Shown in pieces: positions 9,245 to 47,832 of a stretch of 64,000 bases of DNA. Source of the DNA: Malacoraja senta (Eukaryota); NCBI GenBank assembly GCA_038087875.1, contig CM075988.1, positions 11,410,001 through 11,474,000 of the forward strand, given 5' to 3'. The notes below the pieces were generated by a model, which saw only the letters and a program-made list of their open reading frames with translations, did not search any database and was not told where the DNA came from. Each line of letters begins with the position of its first letter. Position 1 is the stretch's first letter. The position numbers and the translations under genes were made by a program.

Positions 9245-9578
9245 AGATGAAATTGGAGGAAATGCACCTCATATTCCGCTTGGGCAGTCTACATCCTGGG
9301 GGCTTGAACATTGAATTCTCCCAATTCTGCTAGCCCTTACTGTCCCCTCCCCTTCATCAGCCCTCTGGTTGTCTCCTCCCCTCACCCAGCCCTCAGGCTC
9401 CTCCTCTGCCTTTTTCCTTTTTTCCTTTCTTCTCCCCACCCCCTATCAGTCTGAAGAAGGGTTTCGGCCCGAAACGTTGCCTATTTCCTTCGCTCCATAG
9501 ATGCTGCTGCAGCCACTGAGTTTCTCCAGCATTTTTGTGTACCTTCGATCTTCCAGCATCTGCAGTTCCTTCTTTAAC
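9245..9578 (+). mobile_element. Penelope-like 3' end (young subfamily)
   Basis: ORF end EEMHLIFRLGSLHPGGLNIEFSQFC*, then pLTR with hammerhead motif and tail ...gtgtacct-tcgatcttccagcatctgcagttccttcttt. Confidence 0.85.
9451..9478 (+). ncRNA. Minimal type-I hammerhead ribozyme motif
   Basis: CTGAAGA-A-GGGT(TTCG)GCCC-GAAA-CG-TT: CUGANGA core, stem II, GAAA, palindromic ACGU stem III. Confidence 0.6.
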
Positions 9579-10179
9579 AAGATGAATGTCTTGTTGTCTT
9601 GTCGCATATAGTATGGAAATCTTCCTTGACTGCTTTATCGTTCAGAATTGAATAGCAAGAGGCATTCTAGCATATGTGTGTTGTTTGCTCATCCATCAAA
9701 TAGATAATGTTATTCCAAAAAATTGAAATAAATTGACTGGTTAACAGAGATTCTAAGACTTTGAACTTCATGGTGATTATTTCAGTGCAGTTTGAGCCAA
9801 TCAAGTATATTTGCATCCCTTCTGGCAGATGAAAACCAGTACCAAAAATAAAATATCCTGTATCTGTACACTGTGGATGGTTTGTTTGTATAGTCGTTCT
9901 CTTACTGGATAGCATGCAACAACCTCAGTACACATGACAATAAACTAGACTAAACTTAGCTGAATTATCAGTCAAAGCCTATAACCTTTCCAACACAAAA
10001 TGCATGAGAAAGAGTCAATCAGAACCTTGATATCTGTAGAATGAACCTGCGGAATGAACCAGTTGTGGTTGAGACAAAGAACTTAATGGACCGTCCCAGT
10101 GAACCAGAATGTGGTAGACTATACAAACTTGTTCTAATGCAGTATCATTTTCATATTTTCTGTTTCCTCATGACAGAAA

Positions 10180-10500
10180 TTAGGCCATTCAGCCCATTGG
10201 GTATGTGGCTTTCAGAGCAATGCCATCAATCCCATCTCCCCTCTTGTTTTCAGTAACCTATTAACTTGTTCTTGCCCATTAACCCCCCCGCCCCCCCGAC
10301 TCTCCCTCCAGCCACTTGCATGGGAAGTAATTTACAGTGGCCAATCAACCTAACAGGCAACATGTCCTTGGGACGTGAGAGGAAAGAAGAGCTCTGAAGG
10401 AGACCGGTATTACCACATAGTGAACTGAAAAACTCGCAGACGGCTTGAGAGACGAGAATCAAACCCAGGTCGCCGGAGCTGTGCTGTCTGCGACACACCA
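10180..10500 (-). mobile_element. Degenerate HE1/V-SINE-like copy
   Basis: aggccattcagccc tail, ccaatcaacctaac and gaatcaaacccaggtc (reversed B box). Confidence 0.6.
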
Positions 10501-11159
10501 TACCAATGGATATGTTGCTTACCCCAAATCCTGTGAACTAGAGTGGGTTTGCTGTGTATCTGAGTGCTCGTAAATCGGCGTGAGATTCTCTCTCTTTATC
10601 CCCTTTGTCTTTATTGTGACAATTCTCTTATCCCAATCCCAGTGAAATGGATTGAGGTAGCCCATTTGCCCCAGTTCCACTAAACTGGAGTGAGACTTAT
10701 TCAAGTCTAGTTCCAGGCAACACACTTTAGTCTGAACTATGAAACATTCGGCTTTTCTCCCAAAATATATCTCAAGGCTAATTGTACTCCACACATTAAT
10801 TTAAACAACTTCATGAGAGTGTGTACAAGTCTTTCATTACACAGTGATTTGTTCAAATACCTCTAACTCTCAGACCCTTGAGAAAATGTACAGAATATGT
10901 GCCAGCGAATTGGAGATGAATAACATCGCAAGTTTTCTAACCATTTACTATTCTGCATTGGGTGCTAAATGTGGTAATGTCTTTTATCTTCATTTTGCAT
11001 TGCCTTTCATGCTCCTTTCAGGATGAATAAAAGCTCTGCATTAAATGAAATAGTAGGTGTCATGCAGAAAATGTAACAACCACATTATGCAGAGAAGTTA
11101 AATATATCAGGCACATCATCAGCAGGTCATCTTTTATAATAAGGCTGAACAACAGAAGG

Positions 11160-11397
11160 TTCACACAATGGGTGGTGGATGTATGGAACAAGCTGTCAGA
11201 GGAGGTAGTTGAGGCAGGGACCATACCAACATTTAAGAAACAGTTAGGCAGGTATACGGATAGGACAGGTTTGGAGAGATATGGACTAAATGCGGGCAGG
11301 TGGGACTATGTAGCTGGGACATTATTGGCCGGTGTGGGCAAGTTGGGCCAAAGGGCCTGTTTCCACGCTGTATCACTCTATGACCCTATGACTCTAT
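11160..11397 (+). mobile_element. CR1 LINE 3' end
   Basis: Translates VDVWNKLSEEVVEAGTIPTFKKQLGRY (CR1 ORF2 C-terminus); tail (ctatgact)n. Confidence 0.85.
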
Positions 11398-12304
11398 AAC
11401 ATCATGCTGTTTCACCTAACCTCCACTGATTGAGAGAGAAGAATAAATGCTTTGCTGCATCACATTAAATCTGGCCTTGACATAATCAGATGGCACTGTA
11501 ATTGCTCCTTGTCAAGGCTTACTCCTGATTATTGAGGTACCAAAGGCAAATAATTCCATTGATCATTAAATCCTGTGAACTGCAGCAATAAATACAAATA
11601 CCATCAGTGGAGTTATTGGCACAGTTCTTCAGTTGCAGAAACTTAGATCTTACTGTGTAAATTTGGTGCCTTATGGAGAGGAGGGTGCAAAAAAAATGGA
11701 ACGAGAAATCAAAAGCATGCTAATTATTTTCCAACCCAATCTAAGTGCTGTTTCAGCAATCACAACTGCCCAGAGTATAGGAGCCAATGTGCTCACTTGG
11801 ATATGTGTCAGGGGGGAGCTATTTTTGAACTGCAGCATATTCCATCTGTTAGAACCACTTTAATATCCACGCAGTGCCAAAATGAAAAAAAAGATCTAAT
11901 TTATATAACAGAACACTGGATTTAATTTTTGTTTTAATACCCACATTTTCTGTGCAATTTTGTTCACTTTTTTTTCAAAATGCCTGTCAAAACATTTGAG
12001 AGTGCATTTTTCATATATGTGCTTAAAGCTCAGACCTCGGCCCCCAAATGTGAGGCTGGATGTTGAAAGAGCTATGAACACATGGCTGTTCCATGTCCAC
12101 CAATGTGAGCATCTAAAGCTCAAAGTTCTGGGCTCTGTTGCAGTCAGTTTAGTTAGAGTCATACAGAAACAGGCCTTTCAGCCCACTGAGTCCATGTCAA
12201 CTATCAACCACCAATTAACACTAATCTGACATTTATATTCTCCCCACTTTCTCATCAATTCCCCTCAGATTCTATCCCTCACCCACACACTGGGAACAAC
12301 CCAA

Positions 12305-12603
12305 ATCAGTCTGAAGAAGGGTCTCGACCCGAAACGTCACCCATTCCTTCTCTCCAGAGATGCTACCTGAGTTACTCCAGCATTTTGTGTCTCTCTTCGA
12401 TTTAAACCAGCATCTTCAGTTCTCTCCTGCAACAACCAATTATTCCATCGAAGATAGACATACAATGCTGGAGTAAAGGAGGGTTCCGATGCAAAATGTT
12501 GCCTATTCCTTTGTCTCAAGAGATGCTGGCTGAACTGCTGAGTTACTGCAGTATTTTGTGTCTATCTTTGGTATAAACCAGCATCTGCAGTTTCTTCTTA
12601 CAC
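12305..12603 (+). mobile_element. Partial-tandem Penelope pLTRs
   Basis: Two direct copies ending aaaccagcatct..cagtt, with a short inverted piece between them. Confidence 0.75.
12311..12338 (+). ncRNA. Minimal hammerhead ribozyme motif
   Basis: CTGAAGA-A-GGGT(CTCG)ACCC-GAAA-CG-TC with a GUC cleavage triplet. Confidence 0.6.
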
Positions 12604-13214
12604 AATTAATCTACCGACCCGCAAGATCTTGGGATATAGGAGGGAACTGGAGCACTGGGGGAAACACAGGGAGAACATGCAAACTCCGCACAGGCAGCAG
12701 CTGAAGTCAGGATCGAACCTAGGTCTCTGGCACAGTGAGACAGCGGCTCTATTCACTGTGCCACCGTTACTTATTTTTTTGGAAACAAGATGTCAGCCAG
12801 CACTGAGGTTTACTCCAGATGGTCAGTGGGGAGAGACCCTGCTATTCCAGGCCCATTTGGTTAAGTATATGAACAGATAACTGGGTGGGTTAGACTGTAA
12901 GTAAGCTTTATCCTGGAAGTCAGAGGAGATGAAGGTGTGAGGGAATCAGGTAATTGGGCTTCCACTGTGGATCTTTTTAAAAATATTTAAATGTTTTATT
13001 AGCGGCATCTGCATATCATAGTCCAAACCAATACAAACTTTGTTTAACGATTACATATTAAATATCCAGGATTCCAGGGACCCAGTTACTAAAGTAGCTG
13101 GGGTCCTCCTTTATCGGTTACATATTAACATTGCCTCTAATTATTTATTGATGTTTATAGATAGGAAAAATAAAGAAATAAAGAGAAGAAATTCGAAAAA
13201 TAGGATAAACTATC

Positions 13215-13522
13215 AAAGTGGCAAAGTGGTAGAGTTGCTGTCTCACGGTGCCAGAGACTCAGGTTTGATCCTGACCATGGGTGCTGTCTGTACAGAGTTT
13301 GTACGTACTCCCCATGATCATGTGGGTTTTCTCCGGGTGCTCCGGTATCGTCCCATGTACTTCTTCAAAGACGTACAAGTCTGTAGGTTAATTAGCTTTG
13401 AAAAAATTTGTAAATTGTCCCTGGTGTGTTGGATAGTGTTAGTGTACGGGGTGATCGCTGGTTGGTGTGGACTCAGTGGGCCTTAGGGCCTGTTTCCCCA
13501 CCGTAACTTTCACTAAACTAAA
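13215..13522 (+). mobile_element. HE1/V-SINE-like copy
   Basis: gtggcaaagtggtagagttgctg head, V-domain gtgggttttctccgggtgctccgg, ctaaactaaa tail. Confidence 0.85.
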
Positions 13523-14141
13523 CCTTTGGTTCAATCATATAAATATTTGTTTCTTTGAGGAACAGCTCTCTGTTCAGAGTTTATGCAAACAATATTTTCT
13601 AATGACTTCTTGCTTGAAAATTATCAATTCAGCTTATGGAGACAATTAATAGCTACCAAATCAAGTGAAGAACAACCACCAGATTTAAACAAATGTTGCT
13701 TGGAATGTGCTTAGATATTTGGCTTCCAATATTGTAATCTCTGTTCTAGGCTTACATTTTAAACTGTGTACTCATTTTTCATTTAACATTTATCTGAAGA
13801 ATTATGTTCTTAATTCAAGACTGGTGCTTTCTCCATCTGGTTACATGTATATCATGTGCCATACATGTGGTTAGACCTGCTATACTTGAAGCTGAAGAGA
13901 TCCGTGGGCGTTTTTGTGGCAGATACATCCGTGGGTGTTTTTGTTGTAGATCTATTTAAAGCACTGACCAGAAGTTATGTAACGCATTCCTCCCGACACA
14001 TGGGTATTATATGCAACACATGACTCATTAAATTCCAGAGTGTGTTATACATATTGTGGGAGGGAATTCCTTGCAGCCAACAAAACAGAGTTTCCGGGAG
14101 CTTGGACCATATAATGCACTAGACGGCACAATCTCCAATGA

Positions 14142-14173
<32 letters not shown>

Positions 14174-15015
14174 ATTTTATTTATATAGCGTTTTTCAGGA
14201 CTCAAAGTCGCTTTACATTGAGAGTCAAAAAAACAAAACAAAATAGAGCAGTAAGACAGAGATGCAAAGGGGAGGGGGACATGGGACTAAGGGTATGCAG
14301 AGGTGAAGAGATGGGTCTTGAGGCGGGACTGGAAGATGGTGAGGGACTCAGAATTTCGGATCAGTTGTGGGAGGGAATTCCAGAGCCTGGGAGCTGCCCT
14401 GGAGAAGGCTCTGCCTCCAAAAGTGCAGAGGTTTGATTTCGGAGTGGAGAGGAGACCAGCTGATGTGGATCTGAGGGACCGTGAGGGTTGGTAGGGGGAG
14501 AGGAGGTCAGTGAGATAAGGGGGGGTCCAAGTGGTTGAGGGCTTTGTAGGTGAGGACCAGGATTTTGTAAATGATCCGGTGGGAAATGGGAAGCCAGTGA
14601 AGTTCTTTGAGAACTGGGGTGATGTGGTGCTAGGATTTGGTGTGGGTAATGAGTCGGGCAGCAGCGTTCTGGACCAGTTGGAGTCGGTTGATGTTGCTGG
14701 AAATTATGCCAAAGAGAAGAGAGTTACAGTAGTCCAGTCGGGAGGAGATGAAGGCATGGATGAGTCTTTCAGCAGCGGGGGGTGTGAGAGAGGATCTAAT
14801 TTTGGCAATGTTGCGGAGGTGAAAAAATGATGTTTTGACAACATGACGGATGTGAGGCTCAAGGGAGAGGGTTGAGTCAAAGATCACGCCAAGGTTGCGG
14901 GCCTGAGGAGATGGGGAGACAGTGGTGCCGTCAATAGTGAGAGTGGGGTTGTTAATTTTAGTGAGTGTTGATTTTGAGCCAATGAGGAGAAATTCTGTTT
15001 TGTTACTGTTTAATT
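14142..15015 (-). mobile_element. L2-clade LINE, 5'-truncated
   Basis: ORF 14630-15022 (LNSNKTEFLLIG...ARNLGVIFDSTLS...SRLDYCNSLL...LQLVQNAAARL) continues past a TAG as HITPVLKELHWLP...APRLWNSLP. (TTA)n tail at 14142-14171. Confidence 0.9.
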
Positions 15016-15619
15016 GAGTCAAGAACAGCTGATGCTTCTGCTATGATTCACTTTCTTGGGATTTTCTTTTGGCAATCCTTAAGATTATTAGTCAGGGAAG
15101 TCGAAAGTGTGACAGTAGCAGGATGACATTTGTTTTTAACAAGAGCACCAATTGCTGATGTTAGAAAAGTAAGAGCAATTAATTTGTGTCAAATTTCAAT
15201 TAGCTGCAGCTCAGCTCTTTCATAATGAAATATGTATTTTCACTTCTTGAATTATTAGTAGCTAACGAAATAAAACTTTTAAGTCAATAAACCATAGTCA
15301 GGAGTGGTGCAGTAACAGTTTGATAAGGCTCACAATGTCAATTCATTTTAGAGAGGGTGAACAGCTGGTAGGATGTGGGCAGTAGATCGCACTATATTGC
15401 AAACTGGTCTCCATTCACCTTCAGTCAGACTGGATGGTTGCTGAGGCACCACAGTTTGTCTCATGCTTCTGCTTAATGGATGGCATTACTAACATTAATC
15501 AAGTTATGTCCTTGTGCTGAGTATTGTTTGTCACAGGGCACGGGCCCACTGTGTGATGCCTGCTGGCAGATATTTAATGTACAAGCTCACCAATGGACCA
15601 AAGAGGGCAGCAAGGAGAC

Positions 15620-16545
15620 ACAGCAACTGCAGATGCCAGAATCTCGAGCAAAACGCAAAGTGCTGGAGGAACTCAGTGGATCAGGCAGTATCTGTGGCAG
15701 GAATGGACAGATGGTGTTTCGGGCAGGGACTCTTGTTCAGGCTGAAGGAATGGGGTAGAGAAGCTGCTATGGAGGTCAGATGGAGGGGTGGGGTAAAACT
15801 GGCAAATGATAGTTGGGAAGACCTATCTTTCCTGAAGAAGGGTCCTGACCAGAATCATCACCTATCCATGTTCTCCAGAGATGCCTCCTGACCCGCTGAG
15901 TTGTACAGGGCGCCAGTGAGACGACACCTGCAGTATTGTGTGCAGTTTTTGTCTCCAAATTTGAGGAAGGACATTCTTGCTATTGAGGGAGTGCAGCGTA
16001 GGTTCACAAGGTTAATTCCCGGCATGGTGGGACTGTCATATGTTGAGAGAATGGAACGGCTGGGCTTATGTACTCTGGAATTTAGAAGGATGAGAGGGCA
16101 TCTTAGTGAAACATATAAGATTATTAAGGGTTTGGACACGCTAGAGGCAGGAAACATGTTCCCGATGTTGGGGGAGTCCAGAACCAGGGGCCACAGTTTA
16201 AGAATAAGCAGTAAGCCATTTAGAACAGAGATGAGGAAACACCTTTTCATACAGAGAGTTGTGAGTCTGTGGAATTCTCTGCCTCAGAGGGCGGTGGAGG
16301 CCGGTTCTCTGGATACTTTCAAGAGAGAGCTAGATCGGGCTCTTAAAGATAGCGGAGTTAGGGGATATGGGGAGAAGGCAGGAATGGGGTACTGATTGTG
16401 GATGATCAGCCATGATCACATTGAATGGTGGAGCTGGCTCGAAGGGCCGAATGGCCTACACCTGCACCTATTGTCTATTGTCTATTGTTACTCCAGCATT
16501 TTGTGTCTTTCTTTGATAAACCAGCATCTGCAGTTCCTTGTTATT
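15620..16545. mobile_element. Inverted Penelope pLTR pair split by a CR1 insertion
   Basis: Host sequence acccgctgag (to 15900) resumes as ttactccagcattttgtgtc at 16488. Confidence 0.75.
15901..16487 (+). mobile_element. CR1 LINE 3' fragment
   Basis: ORF 15901-16395 (LQYCVQFLSP...RFTRLIPG...RTRGHSLRI...VVSLWNSLP); 3' tail (ctattgt)n. Confidence 0.92.
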
Positions 16546-17329
16546 ACATAAGTGATACGTGGACTCGGGTGAGGAGGGGTAATTGGCAGATGGGTGGAAA
16601 TAGTAACAAAAGCTTGAGGTGAGATGAAGGCCAAAGGCTCTAGCTGTGGAAACAGAGGGGAAGGATGAGGAGGAGTGAAATATAAAAATGGAAGGAGGGG
16701 TAGTGGGTGGAATGGATCAGGAGGAAAAGGGAGGAATTAAAGGAAAAATGAGGGACACAGAATTTCCTCCCACATCCCAAAGACGTACGAGTTTGTGAGT
16801 TAATTGGCTTCTGTAAAATTGGCCCTAGTGTGTGGGGAATTGAAGGTAAGTGGGATAACATATAACTAATGTGAATGCATGATCTGTGGTTGTTGTGGAC
16901 TAGGTGGGCCGACATTGAAGTTCTTCCTAGCAACATCTCAGAAATGGGTTTAAATTGCGAGTTGGAAGTGAGGGAGGATCTTAGGAGAATGGACGAGTGG
17001 GATTGAGCACGTTGTTGGAGCTGCATACAGACAAGTTTCAGTCCCCAGAGACCTCAACCCAGGCCCTGCAATGAAGTCGTGTGAGAGATTGCTTTTACTT
17101 TATCACCATTCTCTTGATTTCATTTATGAGAGGAAGGATCCATAAAATGAGAAAATACATGGATCAGTCTGAAGAACGGTCTCGACACGAAACAACACCA
17201 ATTCCATTGCTCCATAGATGCTGCCTCACCCGCTGAGTGTCTCCAGCATTTTTGTCTACCTTTGAAATACCACATGGAACTCTTTTTCTAAAGCAGGTGG
17301 CATTTGAAAAATGGGAATATTCAGGTCAA

Positions 17330-17820
17330 TTAGGTTAACGTTCGTCTTGGGAAAAAGGTTGGATGTTATTATAAAATATGTATTAAAATGATGCTTGACA
17401 GAATTTAAGGTAAATGGGCAATGTCGACATGGCTTTGTGTAAGAGAAATTATGGCTGACCAATATTTTACTGTTCTTTGAAGAAATAATATATTCAGTGC
17501 ATATTAGAGAACGGGCGAATGTAATATACTTAGATATAAAGAAACATTTGATAAGGTGGACATCAAAGGTTATTGCAGAAAATCAAAGCTCATCGTTTGT
17601 GCAGTAACACGCTGGCGTTGCTGAAGAATGGCTGGCCAGCAGGGAGGAGGGTAGCTATAATGGGTCTTTTTTATTCTGTTTGGGAAGATGTCACAAGTGG
17701 TGTGCCACTGGGGATAAATCCTGGGCCTTAACTTTATATAATAAATGTGAATAAGCTGGATGAAGGGAACAAAGATTCTGTTGCTAAATTTGCTGATGAC
17801 ACATAGGTAGGTGGACAGCT
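17330..17820 (+). mobile_element. Old CR1 RT-domain remnant
   Basis: Decayed HGF...LTN..., FDKV, GVP.G..LGP and KFADDT motifs (aaatttgctgatgacac). Confidence 0.6.
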
Positions 17821-18164
17821 GTCTTTGTGTACTTTTGACAGCTACCTGGTTGTGAAGAAAACATAAAGAACGAAGAAAAAAGGCATAACATGTAGGAAGG
17901 AACTGCAGATGCTGGTTTACACTGAAGATAGAAACACAATGCTGGAGTAACTCAGCGGGTGCCTTGGCTATCATAAGTCAAAGTGCTCACTGCTATTTGT
18001 CTTTCATTGGGATTGCTAATGTCCACTTTTGGGATTCATTTGCCAGATGTAACACCTGAGCAACTGTTTAATGTTGCAAATCAAATCAGTGCACTTAAAG
18101 CCAGCAGGTCTAATCAGGACCTCTTCCTGTCCTTAAATGTCCCTGTCCTTGGATCTATCCTCAA

Positions 18165-18480
18165 ATGGAACCTTTCAACTATCTCAAGGTACGTCCCGAG
18201 TGTGATTGAGTACTATCCACTGACCTGGATGAGCACAGCTCCAATAACTCAAGATGCCTTGCACCATCCAAGCAAAGTAGCCCTCTTGGTGGCACTCCAT
18301 CCATCATCCTATGCATTCATTGCCTCCCCCAATGTGCAACACACAAAGTGCATTGCAGTTGCTTACCCAGGGTACTCTGACAGCACCTCTCAAATCCGCA
18401 AACTATCCGTGAACCATCAAGAAGATTAAAGGGAGCAGGTGCAGTGCATAACCCATTGCCTGAAAACTCCCCCACATGTG
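18165..18480 (+). mobile_element. Ancient LINE RT C-terminal remnant
   Basis: LSTISRYVPSVIEYYPLTWMSTAP resembles the LINE motif TIYKAQVRSVMEYxPLAW. Confidence 0.5.
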
Positions 18481-18494
18481 GAAACTTCCTCCAG

Positions 18495-18795
18495 AGGCCA
18501 AAGCCTCAGAACAAAAGGGCGTACTTTTAGAGAGGAGATGAGGAGGGATTTCTTTAATCAGTGAGTAGTGAATCTGTAGAATTCATTGCCACAGAAGGCT
18601 GTGGAGGCCAGGACAATGGATATTTTTAAGGCAGAAATTGATAGATTCTTGATTAGTATGAGGTGTCAAGGGTTATGGGGAGAAGGCAGGAGAATGGGGT
18701 TGAGAGGGAAAGATAGATCGGTCATGATTGAATGGCGGAGTAGACTCGATTGGTTGAAAGGCCTAATTCTGCTCCTATAACTCATGAAGTTATGA
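18495..18795 (+). mobile_element. CR1 LINE 3' end
   Basis: Translates PQKAVEARTMDIFKAEIDRFL, followed by a CR1 3' UTR. Confidence 0.8.
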
Positions 18796-19046
18796 ACTTC
18801 CTTTTTAACAACACAAAAGGAATAAGTTCACTCGAATGACTGTAGCCATTCAAAAAGTCAGATCAACACCACCACCACTCCAATTATGGATAGGCAATAA
18901 CTTTGGCTTTGACAACAACACCCAGGAGGAACAAACAGAAACTGCTGCCAAGAAATGTCAGTGTGATCAAATGGATGTGCTGTTGGTCAAAGTTGTGGCA
19001 TGCATGCTCCTGAAATAAGCAGTACCGGGCAATCTAAATAATCTAA

Positions 19047-20536
19047 TCTATCTATGTATATATTACTACAACTCTCATCTTGTTTATTTGTATGCGTGCA
19101 TGTGTGTGTGTGAGATCCTGGAACCCCGCCAAAACGGTACATGAAGCACTACAATATTTGGCCCACCTTACTCACCATTGTCCTGGGATGTGCAGTATCA
19201 AGTTTTGTTTGGATTGATGTTATATTTTACAAGTTATTGACATTTTAAACTTTACAAAAACCACTATTCCACTTGCCCTGCCCGTCAGCCACGTTCTACG
19301 TCACAACAACGTCACAATGGGATCCCAATGGGTCCACCCCCTGCAAAGATTGCCCGCCGCCATCTTGCAATCGACTTTCCTATCGCAATGTTTTATTTTT
19401 CTCACAACGGGGACCCAAAGGCTCCACGGGTAAGTTTCCTTCTACTTTACAAACGCCTCCATGGGTACTCTATTCACTTTACTAACTTTAACTTAATTTC
19501 AGCCATCAACGGCACAACTTTGAACTTGGCAGCCGTGCATGCGCAGTTTGGTGGAATATTGCATTGGGGGAGTGGGCTCAACGGGTCCGCATTTGGTCTA
19601 GTATATATTACTTGTTTGTTTGTAGGCGAGCGTACGTGCGTGTGCATGAGATCCTGAAACCCCGCCAAAACTGTACAAGATAGCGCTAGAAATTTTGGCC
19701 CACCTTACTCACCATTTTCCTGGGATGTAAATGAAACAAGTATTGTTTGGATTGATATTATATTTTACAAGTCATTGACATTTTAAACTTTACAAAAATC
19801 ACTTTTCAAACCACATTTCCACATGCCCTGCCCATCAGCCGTGTCGACGTCACAATGACGTCACAATGGGATCCCGAATCTAATTTACATAAAAACTCAG
19901 TTTTAATCAATTCTTCATTCTTCATTAACAGCTAACATTGTGTTTAGCGTATTTCAAAGAAAAACGCGATTTTCATTTTAATTTTAAAAAATCAAAATTT
20001 TCATTGTGGGGTGGGATAGGGGGGAGGTGAGGAGTAGGGGGATAGAGGGAGAGGAGGGTGTAGGGAGGGGAAAGGGAGGGAATAGTGGGAGAAGTGAGGA
20101 GGGAATAGTGGGAGAAGTGAGGAGGGAGAATGGGGGGAGGGGAATAGAGGGAGAGGAGGGGGGAGTGGGGGAGGTAGGGAGTGGGGGATAGAGGGAGAGG
20201 AGGGTAGTGTGGGAGGTGAGGAGGGAGAGTGGGGGAGTGGGATAGGGGGAGGTGAGGAGTAGGGGAGCAGGAAGATAGAGGCAGAGGAGGGGGTAGGGAG
20301 GAATTATGGAGGGAGGAAGGGAGTGACTGAGGGTAGGGGAAAGGAGAGGGAGGGAGAAGTGAGAAAGTGAGTGGGGGAGGGGAGGAGGAGAGGAGAAAGG
20401 TGAGGGCGTGAAGAGGAAGGGGAGGAAGGGGACGACGTGCTGGGGATGAGGGGGAATAGAGGAGGATAGGGGCAGGATTTATACACGTTATTAAAACTTA
20501 ATGCAACAACCTGGTTTGTGCTTTACATACTCCTAG
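19047..20536 (+). mobile_element. Head-to-tail non-autonomous Helitron-like units
   Basis: A|TCTATCTAT..ATATTACTACAACTCTCATCTTG 5' end. Imperfect hairpin gggctc-aac-gggtcc plus CTAG|T at 19598-19601. Unit 2 repeats ~19060-19330 at ~19602-19875. The right boundary (CTAG 20533-20536) is tentative. Confidence 0.7.
20005..20475 (+). repeat. G/A-rich low-complexity tract
   Basis: Almost purely purine plus strand with many GGG(G) runs. Confidence 0.9.
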
Positions 20537-29020: not shown

Positions 29021-29024
<4 letters not shown>

Positions 29025-32322: not shown

Positions 32323-32365
32323 AATGTTTTAGTCAACAGCTTTTCAAACTGATATAAAATTGTTG

Positions 32366-36320: not shown

Positions 36321-36927
36321 CCTGATAATTCACATGGTGAATGCAAGACTAAAGCTTTGAAAAATAAAATACATACGTTGGTGTTAAGATAATGTTATGG
36401 CACCACAACTGGTAAAGTCATCGAAGACTTGGGGGATCAACATGGAGCACGCAGGAGCCCGTGTTGTAAACAAACACATCTATGGTTATATTATAGACAG
36501 CATTTTCTCAAAGGCTATTTTAGTTCTGCCTCAGAACAATGCAAGAAAGAGATGGGTAGAGTTACTCCGGCTGCTTATTTAGTTAACAAACCATCTGATT
36601 TAGAATCAAACTCTCTGAACCCTTGGGGGGTCTGCTTTAGTCTCCAGTCTTGTTGGTAGATTACACCAGGAATAATATTGTGATATGCTTGGCTATTACT
36701 CTCTGTGCAAGGCAATGCAAGTGAAAATAATCCAATATATATATAAACTGTGAATGTATTGCCAGAAGGTGAAAACATGGTCAGAGCCATTAATGTACAC
36801 GATGAAGGGGCAGGTGGTGCAAATCCAGTGGAATCCAATCAACCCAGTAAATGGATGACTGCACAGGTTAATGCCATTAAGAAAGGAGGAACAGACATAT
36901 TGGAGATATGGAATGTAAATGAGGTAA

Positions 36928-37170
36928 AACACAAAATGCAGGAGGAGCACAGCAGGTCAGGCAGCATCTGTGAAGGAAATGAATAGGTGACCTTTTCAGG
37001 ACAGGACCCCTCTTCAAACTGATTGTGACAATGTTTCGGGTTGGTTTTCTTCTTCAGACTGAGCCAAAACATCGGCAATCCATTCCTTCTACAGATGCTG
37101 CCTGACCCTTTGAGTTCCTCCAGCACTTTGTGTTTTACTCAAGACACCAGCATCTGCAGTGCTTGCATCT
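36928..37170. mobile_element. Degenerate inverted Penelope pLTR pair(s)
   Basis: caggtcaggcagcatctg ... cagatgctgcctgacc. Confidence 0.7.
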
Positions 37171-39947
37171 TCAAGTATACAGTATCTGATGATGTGAACA
37201 AAGGCTAATCTCAAAGAAGGAAGTGTGTAAAGTTCATATAAAAATGCATGATTTTTTTCTGTGATGTATGCATGAATAAATCTCTCATCTTCCTCCATTA
37301 ATTCTGTTCTCTATCATTTCTCCAATTAGTTTTCTGCTTCTAACCCTCTCCTCTTTTAACTCCATCTCCTCCCACTGTTCTATATCTCTGCTCACCAAAC
37401 CTCTTGTCACTTCATCACAACTTGATTGCTACCCCTCCCTTTTTTCACTGCTGTTTGGAAATCCAATGTTCATTTGAACATTTGAAATACTGATACAGAA
37501 CTTTATGGTAATTCATCAGGTTGTCACACTCTTCAAGTCAGTCACTGCACTGAGCTGGGGGTGGGTGGGAAACATTAAATTCAAGTTTCTATTCCCAGTG
37601 GCTTCTCTCACTTGTTTTTTTTTTTAGCACGTTCTTTTCAAAAGCCAGACATTTTTCATTTTAATGATCTTTGGGTTTCTGAAGATCTATGAAACAGTAC
37701 TGATTTTCTTTCCATACTTTATCCTTCTCAATCCCTTGATGCATCTTTTCAAGTATCTTAAGATGAATGCAACATCCTTCTTAAATCTTTGAACACAATT
37801 TGAAAAATGCTTGCAAACGTTTCAGCAACATTTGCACATCATTCCTGTCATTGGTACACATTTGAAATATCCTTCCTATTTTTCACTATATTTACAACCT
37901 TAAAATATTTTGAATTTTACACAAAGACAGAAGGAGGCTTTTGAAATGTTACACTAGGGGATATACTATCATAACATCCTTGCAAACCCTTTGTGTAATA
38001 TTTTGCCCGAGAGTTCTAAAGCATTGGAAATACTTGGCCCAACTCATCCACTGGGCCATACCCCTCTAAACCTCTCTTATCCATGTACCTGTCCGGGCCA
38101 CATTTGCCACGTCCACTGCAAGTTGCTGGAAATTTGGATTCCAAAAATCTTGACCAAAACCGCAGGCTTTCAGACCCATTGATGGCCCCAACAGCCTGCC
38201 TCTTTAATGAATGAGATTTCAAGATTTAGAAAGGAATATTAGAATGACGGAGGCAAATACATTTGAAACCAAAACAGATACAAAAATTGAAATGAAAGAT
38301 GGGAAAGCAGGATAGACTAAGAGACAGAATGAAGAAGAAAATGAAATATAAAGATTTTTTTAATGAAAAAAACATTTCCACAATAGTTCATGTTTATCAT
38401 GTGGTGGAGTAATATTGCTACTGTATTTCTAAAATGTAGTTCCATCAATATTACTGTATCATACTTTTATTACAAATAACTTACATTTTAATTCTCACAG
38501 AATAATATACTGCGTGCAGGAGTGTTTCTTCACAGTTTAATGAAGTCCCACTCTTTGATGACAAAGTCGACTGGCGTTGCATGAACATTTATTTTTCTGT
38601 TATGAAGATAATTATTCTATTAATTAGAGTGCAAACTGTTTGAAGTAGGCTAATGGGCAATTGAGGTACAAATGCAGCAATTTCTCATGTCCCATGCAGA
38701 CTGAGAGGAGCTGCAGTCTTCACAAGGCCAGCAGCTGAGTGGCACAAGTTAGCCAATATCTTGTGGCAATTCACAGTTCTTGCATTATCTCGTCATCATT
38801 GAAAATTGACAGCTGATTTGTACATTGAATATGGTGGGCAGTCTTTCAAATCATTACTTCAGCAGCAAATCCCTTGTCATTAAATATACTGATACATCAG
38901 GGGATCTCTTTACCTCAGCCGACAAATCCTAAACTCCACACATTTCAACTTGCTGCCTTTGACCAATCAAGTATAACGTAAATTTAAGACAGACTTGATT
39001 TTGGAAACATAATTGCTCTCAGGGAAATCTTTTTCTCTGAGCGTAGGAATGCAATATTTTAAAAATTAATCAGAATATAACTGAAAATGAATTTACTGCC
39101 TTTGCTTCCTTTAGTAGTTTCGAAAACGTTTATAAATTGACGTTCCTAATTTAGAAAAATAAATCTTGAAACTGAAGAGCATAATGAAGGCTGTTTAGAA
39201 ATGCCCAGACCTACAGAATGTATTTCCAGTAGCATGTTGAGCTACTTGCTCTGATAAATGAAGAAGCTGTTTCTCCTGGAAATTTAATAAGCTCAATTCA
39301 GCTGGCTTTCGACATGCATTTGAAAATGAAGTGCAAATCAGGGACTTATATTGACAGCAGGCAGAATGGTAGGACTGAACTGGCAGCCAGGAATGAAGTG
39401 CATCGCTGTAGGCTCATTAGTTTAATTGCAATAAGAAATGGGTTGGTTTCTTGCAGCAGTGCTTTTTAAAAATTCATATTAAGATGCAAAAACCCTATGG
39501 AGCACTGAGCATATATGGCATGATTCTTCGCCCTTCTTTACATGCATCTACAGGAATCAGGAATTCTGTCATTAAGGTCACCGGACTTGAATCTGAAAAA
39601 AACCCACTATGAATTTCAGGACCTAATAGAATTGTCCTTGTTTCAGTTTGAAAATATCACATAGAACAGGACAGCACAGGAACAGGATCAATGTTTGTGC
39701 TGAACATGATATCAGGTTAAACTAATCTCTGGTGTCTGCACGTGATCCATACCCCTCCATTCCCTGCATATCCATGTGCCTGTTGAACAGCCTCTTAAAT
39801 GCCACTGTTGTATATGCCCCCCACCCACTACCATTACAGGTTATGTGTTTTTAGCAACTTGGATTCATGAACTCTGCTCCAAGATAAGTTCCTACCCCAA
39901 TTCTCCTGAAATGACCAAATGTTTTTGTGTCTGATGTCCAAGTGTTT

Positions 39948-40170
39948 TTAGACTTTAGAGACACAGAGTCTCGCGCCGACCAGCGATCATCCCATACACT
40001 AGCACTATCCAACACGCAAGGGACAATTTACACTTCTTTTTACCAAAGCCAATTAACCTACAAACCTTTATGTCACCTGAGTGTGGGAGGAAACTGGAAC
40101 ACCCAGAGAAAACCCACATGGTCACAGAGAAAACATAAAAACTCCATACAGACAGGACCTGTAGTCAGGA
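39948..40170 (-). mobile_element. HE1/V-SINE-like copy, truncated
   Basis: tttagactttagag tail and reversed V-domain. Confidence 0.75.
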
Positions 40171-41374
40171 GTTTTTAAAGACGCAAAGCTCTGGAGTAAA
40201 TCAGGGTCAGGTAGCATCTCTGGAGAACATTGATAGGTGACATTTCAGGTCAGTACCTTTTTTTAGACTGACCCACTGAGATACTTAAGAACTCTGTGTC
40301 CCTTTGTTACAAATCAACATCTGTAATTCCTTGTGTCCACGTTCAGATTTTTTATTTTGATTCACAAAATAAGGTGAACAGTGAACAACCTGGCCCCTTG
40401 CTCTTGTGAGGATACAGTTCCACAAAGGGCAGTGAGCCGATATTATTTCCCCTTATGGGCCATTCTGCACATATGGGCCTGAGAAAAGAGTCCTTGTAGT
40501 GTACCCAAGCATCACATATCAGCAGCAAGCGTAGGATCTGCAGCAGAAGTCACTGTGGTCTTCAACAAATCTTTCTTTATTCACAAAGGACATGAAATTA
40601 GCTGGCATTCATAGCTTAAACAGCATGTCTGAAGCATGTTGTCTGGTATTACCATACTGTTGTTTGTGGCAGCTTTCTGGGAGTCATTTGCCTGTCAATT
40701 TTCCTACATAACAAAACATTTAAAATATGAATGATTTACCTTATGATGATCAGAGATTGCGAAAGGTGCCACATTAATGGAGATTTCATTTTTATTTTCC
40801 CTTTACGCCTGATTCTTCAGTTCTTTTAAAGTTCAGGATACCTTCTCCTGCTGGCATTAACGGCCTGCAGTATTAGAACAACCATGATTTTAGCGGAAAC
40901 ATGGGAAAATTCAGCTGGGTTTCATCACTGGAAGTCATATGCTGATTGTACACATTAAAAAAAAAAGTGTAAGTGAGAAAGTTCCATTCTGTGCCATGTT
41001 TAATGTGGTATGACCAATGGGAAGTTATTTGCTGAGAGTATTGCAGCTGAAAAAGGAGGGAAAAAAGTGTATAATTATTTTGATGAATGTATTAATGGAC
41101 TCCCTCATTAGCTGATTCATATATTCGGGGAATGGACAATCAGAACAAAGGTGTATTTTTCAAACCCAACATCTGTCATAGTAATGTCATTATTATCAGA
41201 ACAGGTGTGAAGGCAATAGCTGAAAGAAAGGGGGAACAACTGTATACGACTTGGCTGGTCAGGAAGTATGTTTCAAATTGATCTTTGGGAATGAATCCAG
41301 CTGGCAGATGCAATTTGTTTTAATTACCCACTCTTTCGGTAAACATTTTATGTGCAGTTACTTACATAGTGGAA

Positions 41375-41672
41375 ACAAAGAACTGTAGACTGTAGTATAC
41401 AAAAAAAGACACAAACTGCTGAAATAGCTCAGCGGGCCAGGCAGCCTCTCTGGATGGATTGGTGACATTTCAGGTTGGGACCCTTTCTCGGAGGGGATGT
41501 TAGAGATTATCTAAAAATGGAACCTCCTCTCTTCCAGCTTTCTTCCCCCCTCTAACCCCCGCCCACCCCACCCTCACCACCACAATCTGTCTGAAGAAGG
41601 GTCCTGACCCTAAACGTCGCCTACCCACATTTGCCAGAGATGCTGCCTGACCTGCTGAGTTCCTCCAGCACA
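41375..41672. mobile_element. Inverted Penelope pLTR pair, degenerate
   Basis: ctcagcgggccaggcagc ... gtctgaagaagggtcctgaccctaaacgtc...gatgctgcctgacctgctgag. Confidence 0.7.
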
Positions 41673-42785
41673 TAAATTGTAGCATTGCAACTTGCACCTC
41701 GTACTGCATGCTCTGAATTGCCCAGTATCTGGAAAAATATATATGATAGCATGAATAAAGATTGGGAAGGACATTTTGTAAATATGAAAATAACAATATA
41801 ATTCAGGTCTTCTTGTTGTACCAAGATCACCTCTGAATTTGGTTGAATTTCAGTGTTTGTAGGACCCCCCCCGTACAGAAATAAACAGGACTCCTAAACA
41901 CATCAGAGATGATCCCGAATTCTTGTAAAATTTCATATTTTCAATCTTTCACAAATCGGACTTTGGGAGAAATATCAGACCCTGAGCAGCACTTTACTTT
42001 TTAGGATATAACTTTTGTTTTAGGATTTAATCTTCCTGTAAGTCTGATAGATATCTGGTTATCAACTCTGTTGGATCAATTCAGGAACCTGAGTCAAGGG
42101 TAGTTTTCGCACTGGTGTTTTATAAATTAATTTGGAGTTGTACTCTTCACTTCTTCTCTCTGCCTCTTCTTCTTTTCGGGTCCATCTTGTTACAAATGTT
42201 GACCTCGCTGTCATCGTCCGTCCTGAAAAGGACGCAAGCTTCCGGCGACAATCAGTGGAAGCCATCACTTGTCGCAATAGATGAAGGTGGTAGCAGAATT
42301 AGTTCAGGAAATTTCCAGTTTCCAGCCCCGCGACGTGGATGCTTCTGCTATAGGGGCCTTCTCTCTGCTCAGAATCAATGACCTTTTCAGACACTTCTTT
42401 GCAGCAGAGTGGCATTACTATAAGGCCTTTACTTCCATGGCACAAAGGGGACATCTCTAGTTGTGTATTATTCTCTGGTTATCCTGGTATCCAAGTGTGT
42501 GTCTATAAGTGAGCAGGTTACATTTTACGGACAGAAAAAATATATATCTTTGTTGAAATAGGAAAGAAAAATCTGAAAGGAAAATCTTTAAAAAGCTCCC
42601 TTTAACCCTCATTTCAGATGTATTGTTTAATTTTCTTCGACAGTCTGTCTACTGGCTGTTGTTGCAGCTCAGGGCTCTCCCACAGCAGCTGTGCATCGCA
42701 GCATGTAGAACAAAGATCTGCCTGTAACCCTGGCGTTACTAATGTTGAAGTGGAATAAAATACAGTTGCATTTTGATTTTACATT

Positions 42786-43730
42786 TCTTTTTTTTTCTTT
42801 TTTTCTTTTTTTTTTATTAGAAGTATTTTACATTACAGTTATCTGCAATAACATAACATAATTTTATACAATTCTTGTACCACTTCTGTTTTTCAACTTT
42901 AATAGAAAAAAGGATAGAAAGAGCTAGCAATGATAGTCAGTGAGTGAATGAAAGTGGTGCAGAACTACTCTTGTGAACCTAAACCACAAGAAGTAGTTAA
43001 AGAAGAAAAGAAAAAAAGAGAAAAAAGAAAATAAGATAGGACAATATGAAAGGGATGTGTCTACTTCTTATCTTTACTCACCCCTCGCCAGGTCCTAAAA
43101 CCATTTATTATCAACATTTTGTTGCACCCTATGTTTGTAATAAGTCGATATATGGCGACCAAATCTTTTGGAATTGGTCTTGTTTACCTGCTAGGAGGAA
43201 TCTCATATCTTCTAAATGTAACAATTCCGACATATTAGAAGTCCACATTTTTATTGTTGGCGTAGGGGCATTTTTCCAAAATTTCAATATCAGTTTTTTT
43301 GCCGTTAATAAACCATAACTAAGAAAACTCTTTTGAAACGCAGTCAGCTCCAAACTTGCTTCTGTTGTTCCAAAAATAATCAGTTCTGCATTCGGTTTCA
43401 ATTTTATTTTAAATAATTTAGAGAAAATTTCAAAAATTTCATTCCAAAAATTTTGAATTTTTATACAAAAGACAAAAGAATGTGCTATAGTTGATTCTTG
43501 GACTAGGCATTTATCACAATTAGCTGAGGTATTAGGGTAAAATTTACTTAATTTAGCTTTTGAATAATATAATCTATGTAAAATTTTTAATTGAATCAGA
43601 GTATGTCTTACGTTAATCGAACATTTATGCACATATAATAGATGTCTATCCCAACTCTCTTTCGAGATTTTTATAGCTAGTTCCTGTTCCCATTCTCTTC
43701 TAATCCCGTCCGTGATTTTACTTCTTAATT
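42786..43730 (-). mobile_element. L1-clade LINE, 5'-truncated
   Basis: ORF 43129-43773 (WEQEL...QLKILHRLYYS...CDKC...HSFVFC...FWNEI) is the L1 ORF2 C-terminal Cys/His domain. Poly(A) tail appears as the T-run at ~42786-42815. Confidence 0.9.
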
Positions 43731-43856
43731 TCAATTCAGACTGCAATGAAGAAACTTGGCATGGTAGACCCAAGAGACTTATTTAAGGAAATTAGAGATC
43801 TCGGTCTATTGAATGATCCTGGGGTGATCATCCTAATTGAGAAATCGGTGCTGTCA

Positions 43857-43905
43857 AATGAATGAATGAATGAATGAATGAATGAATGAATGAATGAATG
43901 AATGA
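43857..43905 (+). repeat. (GAAT)n microsatellite, tail of the adjacent minus-strand retroposon
   Basis: About 12 units, followed by attgtcacatgtgacaagtcatagtgaaattc (Rex1-like tail reversed). Confidence 0.9.
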
Positions 43906-46489
43906 ACAAATGAATACTATATTGTCACATGTGACAAGTCATAGTGAAATTCTTTGCTTGCATGCCCAAGGTATGCAAATGTAAGGGTCTTGACCCAAAA
44001 CATTACCTATTCCTTTCCTCCAGAGATGCTGTCTGACCCGCTGAGTTATTCTTTTTTGTGTCTATCTTATGCAAATAGTCGCCACATAAAGGACGCTGAC
44101 AAAGTTACAAAATACCCCCGCCCACTCCTCCTTTGTTCTCTCCACACCCCCCCTCACAGCGATCCCCCCTGCACCCGGTCTTCTCGCGTCATGTCCTCCA
44201 GCACCCATGTGGCCCGTCCTCAACCGCCTGCGCCTCATTGACCACTGCACCGCCGGCCATGGGTCAGCCCACGAAGCTCCACCGACCGGCGAGGCTCCAC
44301 TGCCCGGCTTCTCTGCGGCCTCCTGGGAGGCGTCATGGGCAAATCAACGGGCATTCAAATAGGAGGGTGAAGGCTGGTGATCCTTTTCATTTGAATATTT
44401 CATCTTCTGCCTAGCCCTGAAATATTAAGGATCAAAGAGTTGTCTGACTATTCTCATTATTTTTCCTTAAATTTAGACGAAAAATTAGATTAAAAAAATA
44501 TATATATTTTACAAATTCAATTTAATTTCACGGCAGACATGAAATTGAAAATTATTCAATTTAAAGAGTAGGGAATAGAAAGATCCCATGCTTTTAACTG
44601 GTGGGAAACATTTTTTAAATTGTTTGAATTATGATCTCAATCTTTGCAAGAACAGGAGACACACACACACACACACACACACAAGGATATTTGGGAAAAC
44701 AGTATCCTGATATTTATGTGAGCACTGTCTCAAATCTTCAATACCTTCGTTGCAAAGTTGCACTGAAGGAATGCTGAGGCTCAAACCATTGAAGTAATTT
44801 CTTTTGCTTGTATTGATCAAAAATAGACTTCACTGTTTCAGTTTCAGTTCTTGAACAGAACTGTTTGCATTCTTTGTTGAATTTCAGATCTCTGGCCTTT
44901 AATTGTTTTCCAATTGTGTTTGTTTATTTATATATGGGACTTACTGGTTAAGCTACCAAAGAGAGTCATCATTGGTATGCCTAACCATTGCTACACTTGT
45001 AACAAAAGACAGCCAAACTGCATTAGTAGGTCGAGAGTTCAGAGGCCTTTGATCCAGCAGTGGTGAATGAATGATGATATATATCCAAATAAGGTAGTGT
45101 GGGGAAGAACAAAGAGGACTTAAGAAGGGTCTGCCCTGAAGCATCACCTGTGTATTTCCCTCCATGGATGCTGCCTGACCCGCTGAGTTCCTCCAATGGT
45201 TTATTTTTTGCTCAAGATTCCATCATCTGCAGTCTCTGGTGTCAACAAAGAAAAGGTGGAGTTTCATGTGCATGCTGCCCTTCTCTTCCTAAGTAAATAG
45301 AAGTCATACATTTGAGTGGTGTGGTTCAGGAAGTCCTACAATATTCTTTCCTATAAGTCTTCATTTCACCATTACTCCTCATTGTTCATAAGAATCCCCC
45401 TTAACCTTTTTTAAATTCGAAATATCCTACCCAACAGCCTGTTTCTTCTCTATTTCACCTTGTCTTTCAGGACAAAAGAAGAAAAAAAATTATTATCCTT
45501 CATTCATTCATAAAAATGTTTATAAATCCCACTAGCCAGTAACACTTGATTTGATATTATACTCCTCTTGCACCCTCCTATACTGATTGCGTGTTCACTT
45601 TCCCTTTAGAAGTTTAAATGTTTTTTTAGAAAGACTCGTGAATATGCTGGGAAATGTTTATAAAGTAGACATCATGTGTAGCATGGATGTTGTGGGCTGA
45701 ATGCCATGTTCCCGTACTGCACTGTGCTATGTTTTATACGTGCCTCCAAACACTATAAACTGACAATCAATACAATACCGTTCAAATAAATGTTGGCTTT
45801 TAACATGTCCAGAACCCAAAATTATTGTTTTTATGAAGTACCTGATCACATTTATGTCTTTATGGTTAATTAGAAAAATGTCATTTCAGCATTTATATAT
45901 CCCATTGAATATATGTATTACTTGACTTAAGATTATTGACGGAACTGCATGCCACCATTGAAGAATTCTTTGATTTTTTTTTTGTACTGTTGAGCGCGCT
46001 GAAATAAATTTGTAATATAATTCCCAAAATAGATTTTCTTTCACAACAGAAACTGTGCTGTGTCACCATTGGCTTTATCTCCCCCCACAGATGGCCAGTT
46101 TATTGCGTTCAGAGTACTCTAGCCCTCTGACGTCTTCTTGGAAATTGCCAACGATATTCCTTCAATGGCCCTAACAAAGGACAAGCCAGAATGGGGAATT
46201 AGTCCCTGAGTTATGAAAGTAGCAATCTTACCAAAGCATCAGTCCATGAAACTAAATGCAGATATCAGTGTAGTTTGTGTTTCATTCTTGAAAAAAATAG
46301 ACAAAGATTCTGCCGAAGACTCAAGATCCTGAAATGAAAATGGCTTAACTATCATCAACTCTTTTCCTTGACTTTTTTTTACCAACTGGAGTATTTTGCT
46401 TTCTGATTCATAACTGAGTTTATTTATTAATCCAATACTACACTGCATAGGTGGAGGAGGTGTTGCTCCTTGAAAATACCTGGTATTGG

Positions 46490-46920
46490 TTTATTATTGT
46501 CATGTGTATTGAAATATAGTGAAATACAGTATGTTTGTGTGCTATCTAGTCAAATCATACTATACAGGAGTACAGTCAAGCCATGCACAGGTACAACCAA
46601 TTGTGCAATGAGAAAATGATCATAGTGCAGAGCATAGCGTTACAGCGTTATACTATAGAGCAAGTGCAGTTTCTAAAAAAAGTGCAAAGTTGCATTGAAG
46701 TAGGTTGGGAGATCGGGCCTACTCCCTCAGCTAATGAGTGGACCATTCATTAGTCTGATAACAGTGTGAAGATGTTGTTCTTGAACTGGTGGTATTTCCT
46801 TTCAAGCTTTTGTATCTTCTACCCAAAGAGAGAGGAGGTAATAACCGGGGCATGAGTGGTACTTGATTATGTGGACTGCTTTCCTGAGGCAACAAGAAGT
46901 GTTAATGGAGTTGATGGGGA
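46490..46920 (-). mobile_element. Old Rex1/Babar-like 3' remnant
   Basis: tttattattgtcatgtg...agtgaaa tail and aagatgttgttcttgaactggtggt (reversed T.FKN.F motif). Confidence 0.55.
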
Positions 46921-47359
46921 GAGATATTTTTGACAATTTTCAATATAAATTAATTCAATGCGAATTAAGAAAAGTTTACTTGACTTCCATTCAAGTCATT
47001 CCCAATCAGTGTAGAGTGTGCTCTCGGACTTGTTTACTGCTCTGTGCTAATTCTAGAGGAGAAGCCGTGAACTAGGTGTCTAATTTCTCTCAGTGTGTTG
47101 CACTGGAATTGAATTGAAATATTAACTTACAGCATCTAGCAAATTTTATTGGGGATATTGTAGTCCATCGGGTCAAATGCTTGGTGTCATTGCTTTCTAG
47201 ATCATTGGTTGTTATGTTCGAATTTGATCGTAGCAATAATGTAAATGTCAGCTCTCAGACATGGTCTTACAAATGAAATAACTGGACTAACACTCAAAGT
47301 TGATTTTTCCAATGATTGCGTGTGACTATTGAAAATGGAGTATCACCAACAGTAAATGG

Positions 47360-47610
47360 TCACAAGATGCTGGAATAACTCAACGGGACAGGCAGCATCT
47401 CTGGATGGAAGGAAAGGATGACGTTTTGGGTCAAGACCCTTCTACAGACTGAGTCAGGGGAGAGGGAAATGAGCGATATGGAAGGGTAAGGTGTGAAATT
47501 GAGAGATCAAAGCAGATGTAGGTCAAGGAAAATGTAAAATAGATCATGATTAGCTTGGGGAAGGCGACAACAAGGCATACAATGTACAATTGTATCAGGG
47601 GGACAGTCAG
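47360..47610 (-). mobile_element. Penelope pLTR/3' UTR fragment
   Basis: gatgctggaataactcaacgggacaggcagcatctctgg. Confidence 0.7.
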
Positions 47611-47734
47611 AATGGTCAGAATCTTTACTGTGGGTCAGAAATATTCACCAACAGTCATTTTTTTACCACCGCTGTAACACAGTCACTTTCTTCCAAATGG
47701 TGAGTCCAAACTGAGAATATCAAAGTCAGAATAT

Positions 47735-47832
47735 CAGTCTGAAGAAGGGTTTCGGCCCGAAACGTTGCCTATTTCCTTTGCTCCATAGATGCTGCTGCAC
47801 CCGCTGAGTTTCTCCAGTATTTTTGTGTACCT
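47735..47832 (+). mobile_element. Single young Penelope pLTR arm with intact hammerhead motif (47739-47766)
   Basis: Near-identical to 23521-23618, ends at the same gtgtacct boundary, and is flanked by tgagaatatc repeats. Confidence 0.85.

Follow-up and report, generated by a model that had tools for sequence, protein, structure and literature searches.

Dispersed hammerhead motifs in Penelope-like terminal repeats, and a predicted CPEB3-type ribozyme at the head of a short retroposon, in a 64-kb window

Introduction

Does a high density of ribozyme motifs along a chromosome imply a high density of working ribozymes? The question is raised by a stretch of 64,000 nucleotides (nt) from Malacoraja senta (assembly GCA_038087875.1, contig CM075988.1, positions 11,410,001 to 11,474,000; here called the window, with coordinates counted from its first letter). 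An initial annotation described minimal hammerhead ribozyme motifs in a dispersed repeat, assigned the repeat to the terminal repeats of Penelope-like elements (PLEs), and proposed that the motifs scatter potential self-cleavage sites over both strands of any transcript crossing the locus. In our analysis the repeat is very probably the 3' end (pseudo-long terminal repeat, pLTR) of a Penelope-like retroelement, with hammerheads that likely act weakly in active elements and are likely inert here. The window also holds a 195-bp retroposon whose predicted ribozyme, similar to that of the hepatitis delta virus (HDV), bears on the origin of the mammalian CPEB3 ribozyme.

Both classes of element have precedents. 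Minimal hammerheads in the pLTRs of metazoan PLEs were described in 2014 by Cervera and De la Pena, who reported high copy numbers in fish, coelacanth and frog; cartilaginous fishes are unnamed in the available text of that paper (PMC4209133). Ribozyme-headed long interspersed elements (LINEs) and their bipartite derivatives are also already known (PMC5786205, PMC3383444), and HDV-like ribozymes of lamprey and lancelet were found by structure according to reviews (PMC8256844). In the literature the CPEB3 ribozyme figures as a single-copy RNA specific to mammals, with a deeper history that could not be traced (PMC8233481); one proposal derives the HDV ribozymes from it (bioRxiv 2022.09.22.508989).

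Results and discussion

The repeat was mapped with an nhmmer profile seeded with nine copies and iterated once. This search returned 40 copies of a ~124-nt unit in the window, 23 on the plus and 17 on the minus strand and 3938 bp in total, and none on the reversed window. The copies named in the initial annotation are real, but its count was too low; its description of this repeat as the commonest agrees with the top rank of the family among the direct-repeat families listed. The features that identify the host element are as follows.

698..63756, both strands: dispersed pLTR-end family, ~124 nt, 40 copies, 12 head-to-head pairs
8438..8773, plus strand: decayed C-terminus of a GIY-YIG endonuclease (tblastn E 3e-11), 330 nt upstream of a decayed motif at 9106
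9241..9327, plus strand: second endonuclease C-terminal fragment (E 5e-6); the intact motif at 9451 follows 120 nt downstream
23415..23651: young insertion of two pLTR copies head to head, arms 23415-23512 and 23521-23618; of the two, just the plus copy has a tail

We assign the repeat to a Penelope-like pLTR, as originally proposed, because GIY-YIG remnants lie upstream of two copies, 12 head-to-head pairs occur, tails are one-sided and one insertion is flanked by a 15-bp target duplication. At E<=0.001, 30 relatives were found for the frame at 8474-8653; a GIY-YIG match was found in five of the seven relatives scanned, one of them exceeding the Pfam cut-off, and Atlas returned GIY-YIG clusters at 0.92 (12-16% of members). 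Within the window the relatives match at 8438-8773 and 9241-9327 only, on the same strand and directly upstream of motifs, and by their sequence the two remnants and their motifs are a partial tandem of a Penelope-like element. The best protein relatives carry a CX2-5CxxC linker, decayed in the window copy, which may point to Neptune. The decayed endonuclease gave no matches when used as query in a word-indexed protein search.

The arrangement of the copies points the same way. Head-to-head pairs no more than 350 nt apart number 12, against a mean of 2.3 and a maximum of 8 in 2000 random placements, and there is a single tail-to-tail neighbour pair. The distal tail is present on one partner in 7 of the 12 pairs, on neither in 5 and on both in none; inverted copies and one-sided tails are traits described for PLEs (PMC8557442). 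In the young insertion at 23415-23651 the arms form a perfect 98-nt inverted repeat, and the target duplication lies at 23400-23414 and 23652-23666. The spacer between these arms (23510-23519) matches sequence further downstream in the same element, which suggests a template switch at insertion. Another member of the young subfamily, at 54342-54509, has its core start replaced by a 31-nt tandem duplication.

A second way to account for such a family is independent amplification as a non-autonomous element, retrozyme-like or resembling a short interspersed element (SINE), beyond mere truncated Penelope ends. Many copies do have their start within several bases 5' of the core, an endonuclease remnant is lacking beside 38 of the 40, and pLTR-derived retrozymes have been reported in vertebrates, one chondrichthyan among them. 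Unit-length head-to-tail arrays are absent, however, several copies retain pyrimidine-rich upstream sequence or endonuclease sequence, of variable length, and inverted pairs with one-sided tails are a PLE signature; we regard independent amplification as unlikely.

The motifs within this Penelope-like repeat were counted with a strict descriptor of the minimal hammerhead, CTGANGA-N-N{8,14}-GAAACGTH. It matches the window exactly five times (mean 0.00 in 100 dinucleotide shuffles), at all five places where intact motifs had been annotated; the decayed copies named there are likewise all present.

9451..9478, plus strand: intact minimal hammerhead, young subfamily, UUCG loop, GUU site
12311..12338, plus strand: intact minimal hammerhead, older subfamily, CUCG loop, GUC site
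23481..23508, minus strand: intact hammerhead, young subfamily, inverted partner of the motif at 23525
23525..23552, plus strand: intact hammerhead, young subfamily
47739..47766, plus strand: intact hammerhead, young subfamily
17169: decayed hammerhead, U16.1 changed, two of four stem II pairs kept
32207, minus strand: decayed hammerhead, core letters retained, three of four stem II pairs kept, palindrome broken
33475, minus strand: decayed hammerhead, C3 changed
41591 and 60362: decayed hammerheads, G12 changed in both
56349: decayed hammerhead, 1-nt deletion within stem II

Intactness was counted over the 25 of 40 copies that cover the core start, the other 15 being excluded. Five of these retain the full core (11 positions) together with the four pairs of stem II, and 20 fail in one or the other. 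The minimal type-I features (core CUGANGA and GAAA, U16.1, H17) are found in five copies, and the intact five all carry a self-complementary ACGU at stem III and a contiguous stem I of only 2 bp, with 2 further bp possible, by eye, past a 2x2 mismatch. Rfam hammerhead models gave no match anywhere in the window at E<=10; matches to the mir-722 model, which fall on the 23.4-kb hairpin, were dismissed as chance.

Two statements about constraint in the initial annotation fared unevenly. The three stem II and loop variants are as described, but the evidence for paired change is unconvincing: all four pairs are retained in 14 of the 25 core-covering copies, and in this small sample the changes are mostly one-sided. 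A lack of excess conservation or covariation in the core relative to the rest of the pLTR had been named as grounds for rejecting a functional hammerhead. Identity at non-CpG positions is 0.90 in the core against 0.79 downstream (p=0.005), an excess that fits selection acting in master elements, whereas covariation finds no support. The best-conserved block downstream (0.855) consists of a pyrimidine tract with AG and ATG after it, about 20 nt past the hammerhead cut site (12340-12365, with equivalents in most copies); it resembles a splice acceptor or the start of an open reading frame (ORF).

Several observations weigh against a Penelope-like pLTR with a hammerhead maintained in its active elements. 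Neither endonuclease fragment alone gives a Pfam match, and no Penelope reverse-transcriptase remnant was found in the window, where a full-length PLE query was not used. Two-sided stem II covariation is absent among the window copies. The core excess is modest, with the downstream 11-nt block also reaching 0.855, and the core statistic is affected by non-independent copies and by local alignment, which favours conserved ends. The hammerhead is not the predicted best fold of any intact copy, and the pairs of stem II reach a probability of no more than 0.02.

Could the dispersed copies nonetheless work as a cleavage network, pairing into dimers and cutting host transcripts made from either strand? 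The five intact motifs with self-complementary stem III ends are compatible with this, dimers do cleave in vitro, although weakly (PMC4209133), and strong cleavage was seen in one of nine dimer elements from Xenopus (bioRxiv 2026.07.22.740005). The other eight did not cleave (bioRxiv 2026.07.22.740005), and in the window most evidence runs contrary to the annotated network. Only five of the 25 core-covering copies retain core and stem II, and youth accounts for their intactness, because a single young subfamily, with members 94-99% alike, supplies four of the five. The sole intact minus-strand copy is locked with its plus partner in a perfect 98-bp hairpin, so that cleavage sites on both strands were not borne out. 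The predicted cost of the hammerhead fold relative to the best fold is 31-44 kcal/mol in that inverted pair (23481/23525) and 4-9 kcal/mol in the other three intact copies; with a 2-bp stem I the predicted dimer duplex reaches merely -1.7 to -4.1 kcal/mol, and the nearest intact pair on the same strand is separated by 2.86 kb. Within the window we recognised neither exons nor a host gene, with Pfam scans of 14 selected frames giving retroelement domains only. We consider a network of this kind very unlikely.

The boundaries of the copies suggest how a Penelope-like element could spread such motifs. No more than one of the 40 copies has its start close to the cut site, as judged with a profile that begins 5 nt before the core and leaves starts further upstream unresolved; the copies retain an uncut motif and ~110-120 nt downstream of it. 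Few copies start at the cut site and therefore the RNA template was likely uncut or re-ligated. Uncut RNA is the dominant in vitro substrate of an Anolis element, whose cleavage is assisted by protein and not required in vitro (PMC11167929). In our proposal the hammerhead likely works weakly in the RNA of active elements, probably needing a partner copy or an element protein. Starting ~110-120 nt past the motif, on a template with its 3' hammerhead uncut or re-ligated, reverse transcription would usually stop early, often adding an inverted second copy. Early-stopping reverse transcription on uncut RNA would thus leave the dispersed motifs as passengers, and inverted pairs would yield double-stranded hairpins rather than ribozyme dimers. 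By these folding predictions and copy boundaries the hammerheads in the dispersed copies are probably inert. Motif density need not mean a density of working ribozymes, and the hammerheads here add one host to a pattern known since 2014.

The window contains a second and different ribozyme candidate, at the head of a short element.

42164..42358, minus strand: 195-bp non-coding retroposon with an (AAG)n-like tail and a 10-bp target duplication at 42359-42368 and 42154-42163
42292..42358, minus strand: predicted HDV-like ribozyme of the CPEB3 sequence type, G1 at 42358, putative catalytic C at 42302

A profile search found this to be the only copy of the CPEB3-type head in the window. The element itself is abundant elsewhere: seven other organisms contain 15-18% of the words of 41750-42780. 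In four of 24 listed sequencing runs, from four organisms, the summed depth over 42165-42355 is ~10^4 times that of the flanks (43,079 against 3.3 in organism A, for example, a ratio that is not an exact copy number), and 1642-4149 contigs per run carry the element. Among the loose ends listed, 5' ends pile up at 42350-42355 in all four runs and continue through the last P1 bases before diverging, and 3' ends pile up at 42165; we conclude that copies begin at G1 because the 5' ends run out there. An orthologous insertion is suggested in organisms B and E, whose contigs extend 27-30 letters into the element, short of the 31-letter bridging rule. Pattern scans of viral and prokaryote collections gave 0 matches for either the pLTR repeat or the 195-bp element. 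An L1-type LINE 3' end (43129-43782, minus strand; zf-RVT E=3e-4, poly(A) near 42790-42815) lies 430 nt upstream of the element.

The head was matched by the Rfam model of the mammalian CPEB3 ribozyme, RF00622 (42292-42369, minus strand, 30.6 bits, E=4e-4), below the cut-off of 35. The family model failed to recover a further match to RF00622, at 22809-22866 (18.8 bits), which we set aside as chance. Folded by hand, the sequence forms the nested double pseudoknot of HDV ribozymes, with a 6-bp P1 carrying the G1-U wobble, a P1.1 of two C-G pairs, a 7-8-bp P2, P3, and a C in J4/2. The usual 7-bp P1 is not found; the window copy has 6 bp, and the loose-end consensus suggests the same for the whole family.

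Relatives of this head came from a metagenome pattern scan with 25 positions fixed in advance, whose eight stretches represent three loci (L001/L002/L008, L003-L005 and L006/L007).

L008 6910-10073, minus strand: 3.16-kb LINE with APE and reverse transcriptase (RT) domains, headed by a CPEB3-type ribozyme
L003 765 onward, plus strand: second copy of the ribozyme-headed LINE (L003-L005)
L006 4863-4941 and L007 8822-8900, plus strand: closest CPEB3 look-alike ribozyme, with a perfect long P4 and the single-pair P1.1 of the CPEB3 type

The LINE at L001/L002/L008 is 3163 bp long, opens with the ribozyme and is flanked by a 14-bp target duplication. The second copy is identical to it at 43 of 45 positions from G1 on and at 15 of 30 upstream. 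The LINE has an APE and RT frame and a C-terminal cysteine motif, without RNase H, a domain absent also from the 120 LINE relatives listed and from the five scanned. Its sequence fits the Vingi architecture, defined as a single APE-RT ORF of about 3.1 kb with no RNase H (PMC13708176). TCATC occurs in the target sites of both L008 and L003 and resembles the (TCA)n tail. Around the ribozyme at L006/L007, neither a target duplication nor an ORF was convincing.

The 195-bp element matches this LINE at 23 of 24 bases in J1/2-P3 and at all 16 of a stretch that takes in J4/2-P2 and runs past it, and it shares a GAC-CGAA motif before the trinucleotide tail. It probably derives, as a non-autonomous form, from a LINE of Vingi/Ingi type. 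Weighing against this, the comparison of its 3' part with the Vingi-type C-terminal profile gives E=0.04, equalled by 54 of 500 shuffles, and the DNA alignment of that part with the LINE end is not significant; P3 of the window copy, moreover, has one A-C mismatch. We infer the LINE partner only, since the 3' part is not significantly like the LINE end, and no partner LINE was found in the window.

In the proposed mechanism, transcription would start in host DNA and the predicted ribozyme would then cleave the RNA immediately 5' of G1, setting the first base of the 195-bp element. A start at G1 is no proof of cleavage, because the head of the trypanosome element also acts as a promoter: the 5' 77 nt of L1Tc are promoter and ribozyme both (PMC3383444). 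The element might then begin at G1 through an internal promoter, with the HDV-like fold a relic or non-cutting. The shortened P1, the weak P4 (-1.8 kcal/mol) and the P3 mismatch would agree with a relic. Yet P1 differs from that of the LINE and CPEB3 by three two-sided G-C to C-G swaps and is still fully paired, with its G1-U wobble, and the two C-G pairs of P1.1 and the C of J4/2 are retained. A promoter-driven start with an idle fold is doubtful.

The likeness of these sequences to the CPEB3 ribozyme is close. The ribozymes of L001, L003, L006 and L007 score 55.6-66.5 bits with RF00622 (cut-off 35), and no other HDV-type Rfam model scores on them or on the window element. From G1 on, the L003 head is identical to the CPEB3 consensus at 36 of 38 positions and the L006 ribozyme at 39 of 41, both changes in the latter being one compensatory pair. 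The shortness of the sequence and the 25 positions fixed beforehand would allow convergence on a shared fold, but the positions left free in the pattern match the Rfam consensus at 18 of 20 in both L003 and L006 (counted by eye), and just about six bases are invariant in the HDV fold (PMC8256844). The locus could instead be a CPEB3 orthologue; against this, the window copy is one of thousands and is flanked by a target duplication, and a scan with CPEB peptide motifs gave no convincing exon match in the window. We therefore rejected the placement of the window in a CPEB gene, and hold convergence or orthology to be decidedly improbable. Judged by sequence comparison, the evidence for homology between the retroposon heads and the CPEB3 ribozyme is strong.

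We lean, by a narrow measure, towards the view that the mammalian CPEB3 ribozyme is the domesticated 5' end of a Vingi/Ingi-type retrotransposon, in a family that still heads autonomous LINEs in other animals and a SINE-sized element, because the same sequence family heads an APE-RT LINE with near identity to the consensus. The available text of PMC8233481, PMC10919898 and bioRxiv 2022.09.22.508989 gives no origin for the CPEB3 ribozyme. We found no paper that links CPEB3 to Vingi or Ingi by sequence; with partial coverage, older ribozyme or Vingi papers may already state the link, and its novelty is uncertain. The six clades with 5' ribozymes listed in the available text of PMC5786205 omit Vingi and include its sister clade Ingi.

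A retroposon family of near-CPEB3 sequence makes the origin of this ribozyme testable and shows natural alternatives for P1 and P1.1. If correct, the proposed origin would supply an outgroup from outside the marsupial-placental split and natural variants, in the thousands, of a memory-linked ribozyme, and the 6-bp-P1 variant would set the first base of each copy in this genome and its relatives. Vingi-type 5' untranslated regions, which are retained in RNA gene-insertion platforms (PMC13708176), may self-cleave.

Three further features of the window were noted. Inverted arms at 32356-32989 (257 nt, 94% complementary, 120 nt apart) resemble a miniature inverted-repeat transposable element. A GC-richer minisatellite cluster at 30849-31544 has units of 46, 36, 19 and 31 nt. 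Direct repeats of ~300 nt at 6282-6600 and 7800-8095 flank a GC-rich stretch and resemble, by eye, the LTRs of a decayed LTR element.

Comparison with known systems

The window hammerheads agree with the minimal hammerheads of PLEs (PMC4209133) in their type-I order, the extra base between positions 9 and 10.1, the G10.1-C11.1 pair, the palindromic 15.2-16.2 end without a loop 3, and their occurrence mostly as solitary copies with some close opposite-strand pairs. They differ from the schistosome motifs of the same report in a stem II of 4 bp rather than 7-8 and a contiguous stem I of 2 bp rather than 4-5. As in PAc Poseidon of Anolis, the pLTR hammerhead lies upstream of the start of reverse transcription and leaves no genomic footprint of cleavage; features of PAc Poseidon itself are an ORF start inside stem II and demonstrated protein-assisted cleavage (PMC11167929). 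Relatives of the window endonuclease, in contrast, carry the CX2-5CxxC linker that may point to Neptune.

The CPEB3 ribozyme (RF00622) is identical to the window copy at 20 of 22 positions over P2-P3-L3-P3 and 10 of 11 over J4/2-P2, whereas the window copy has a swapped 6-bp P1 and a 2-bp P1.1 and scores below the model's cut-off. The mammalian ribozyme is single-copy and intronic, in intron 2 of CPEB3 (PMC8233481, bioRxiv 2022.09.22.508989), while the window sequence heads mobile elements. NARTc, RIME and SIDER of trypanosomes and the bipartite derivatives of Vingi-1_EE are, like the 195-bp element, short and non-coding, begin at the first base of the ribozyme and have target duplications of 10-12 bp (PMC5786205, PMC3383444). 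The window element differs from them in its vertebrate-type host genome, its length of 195 bp, its very high copy number and its 6-bp P1.

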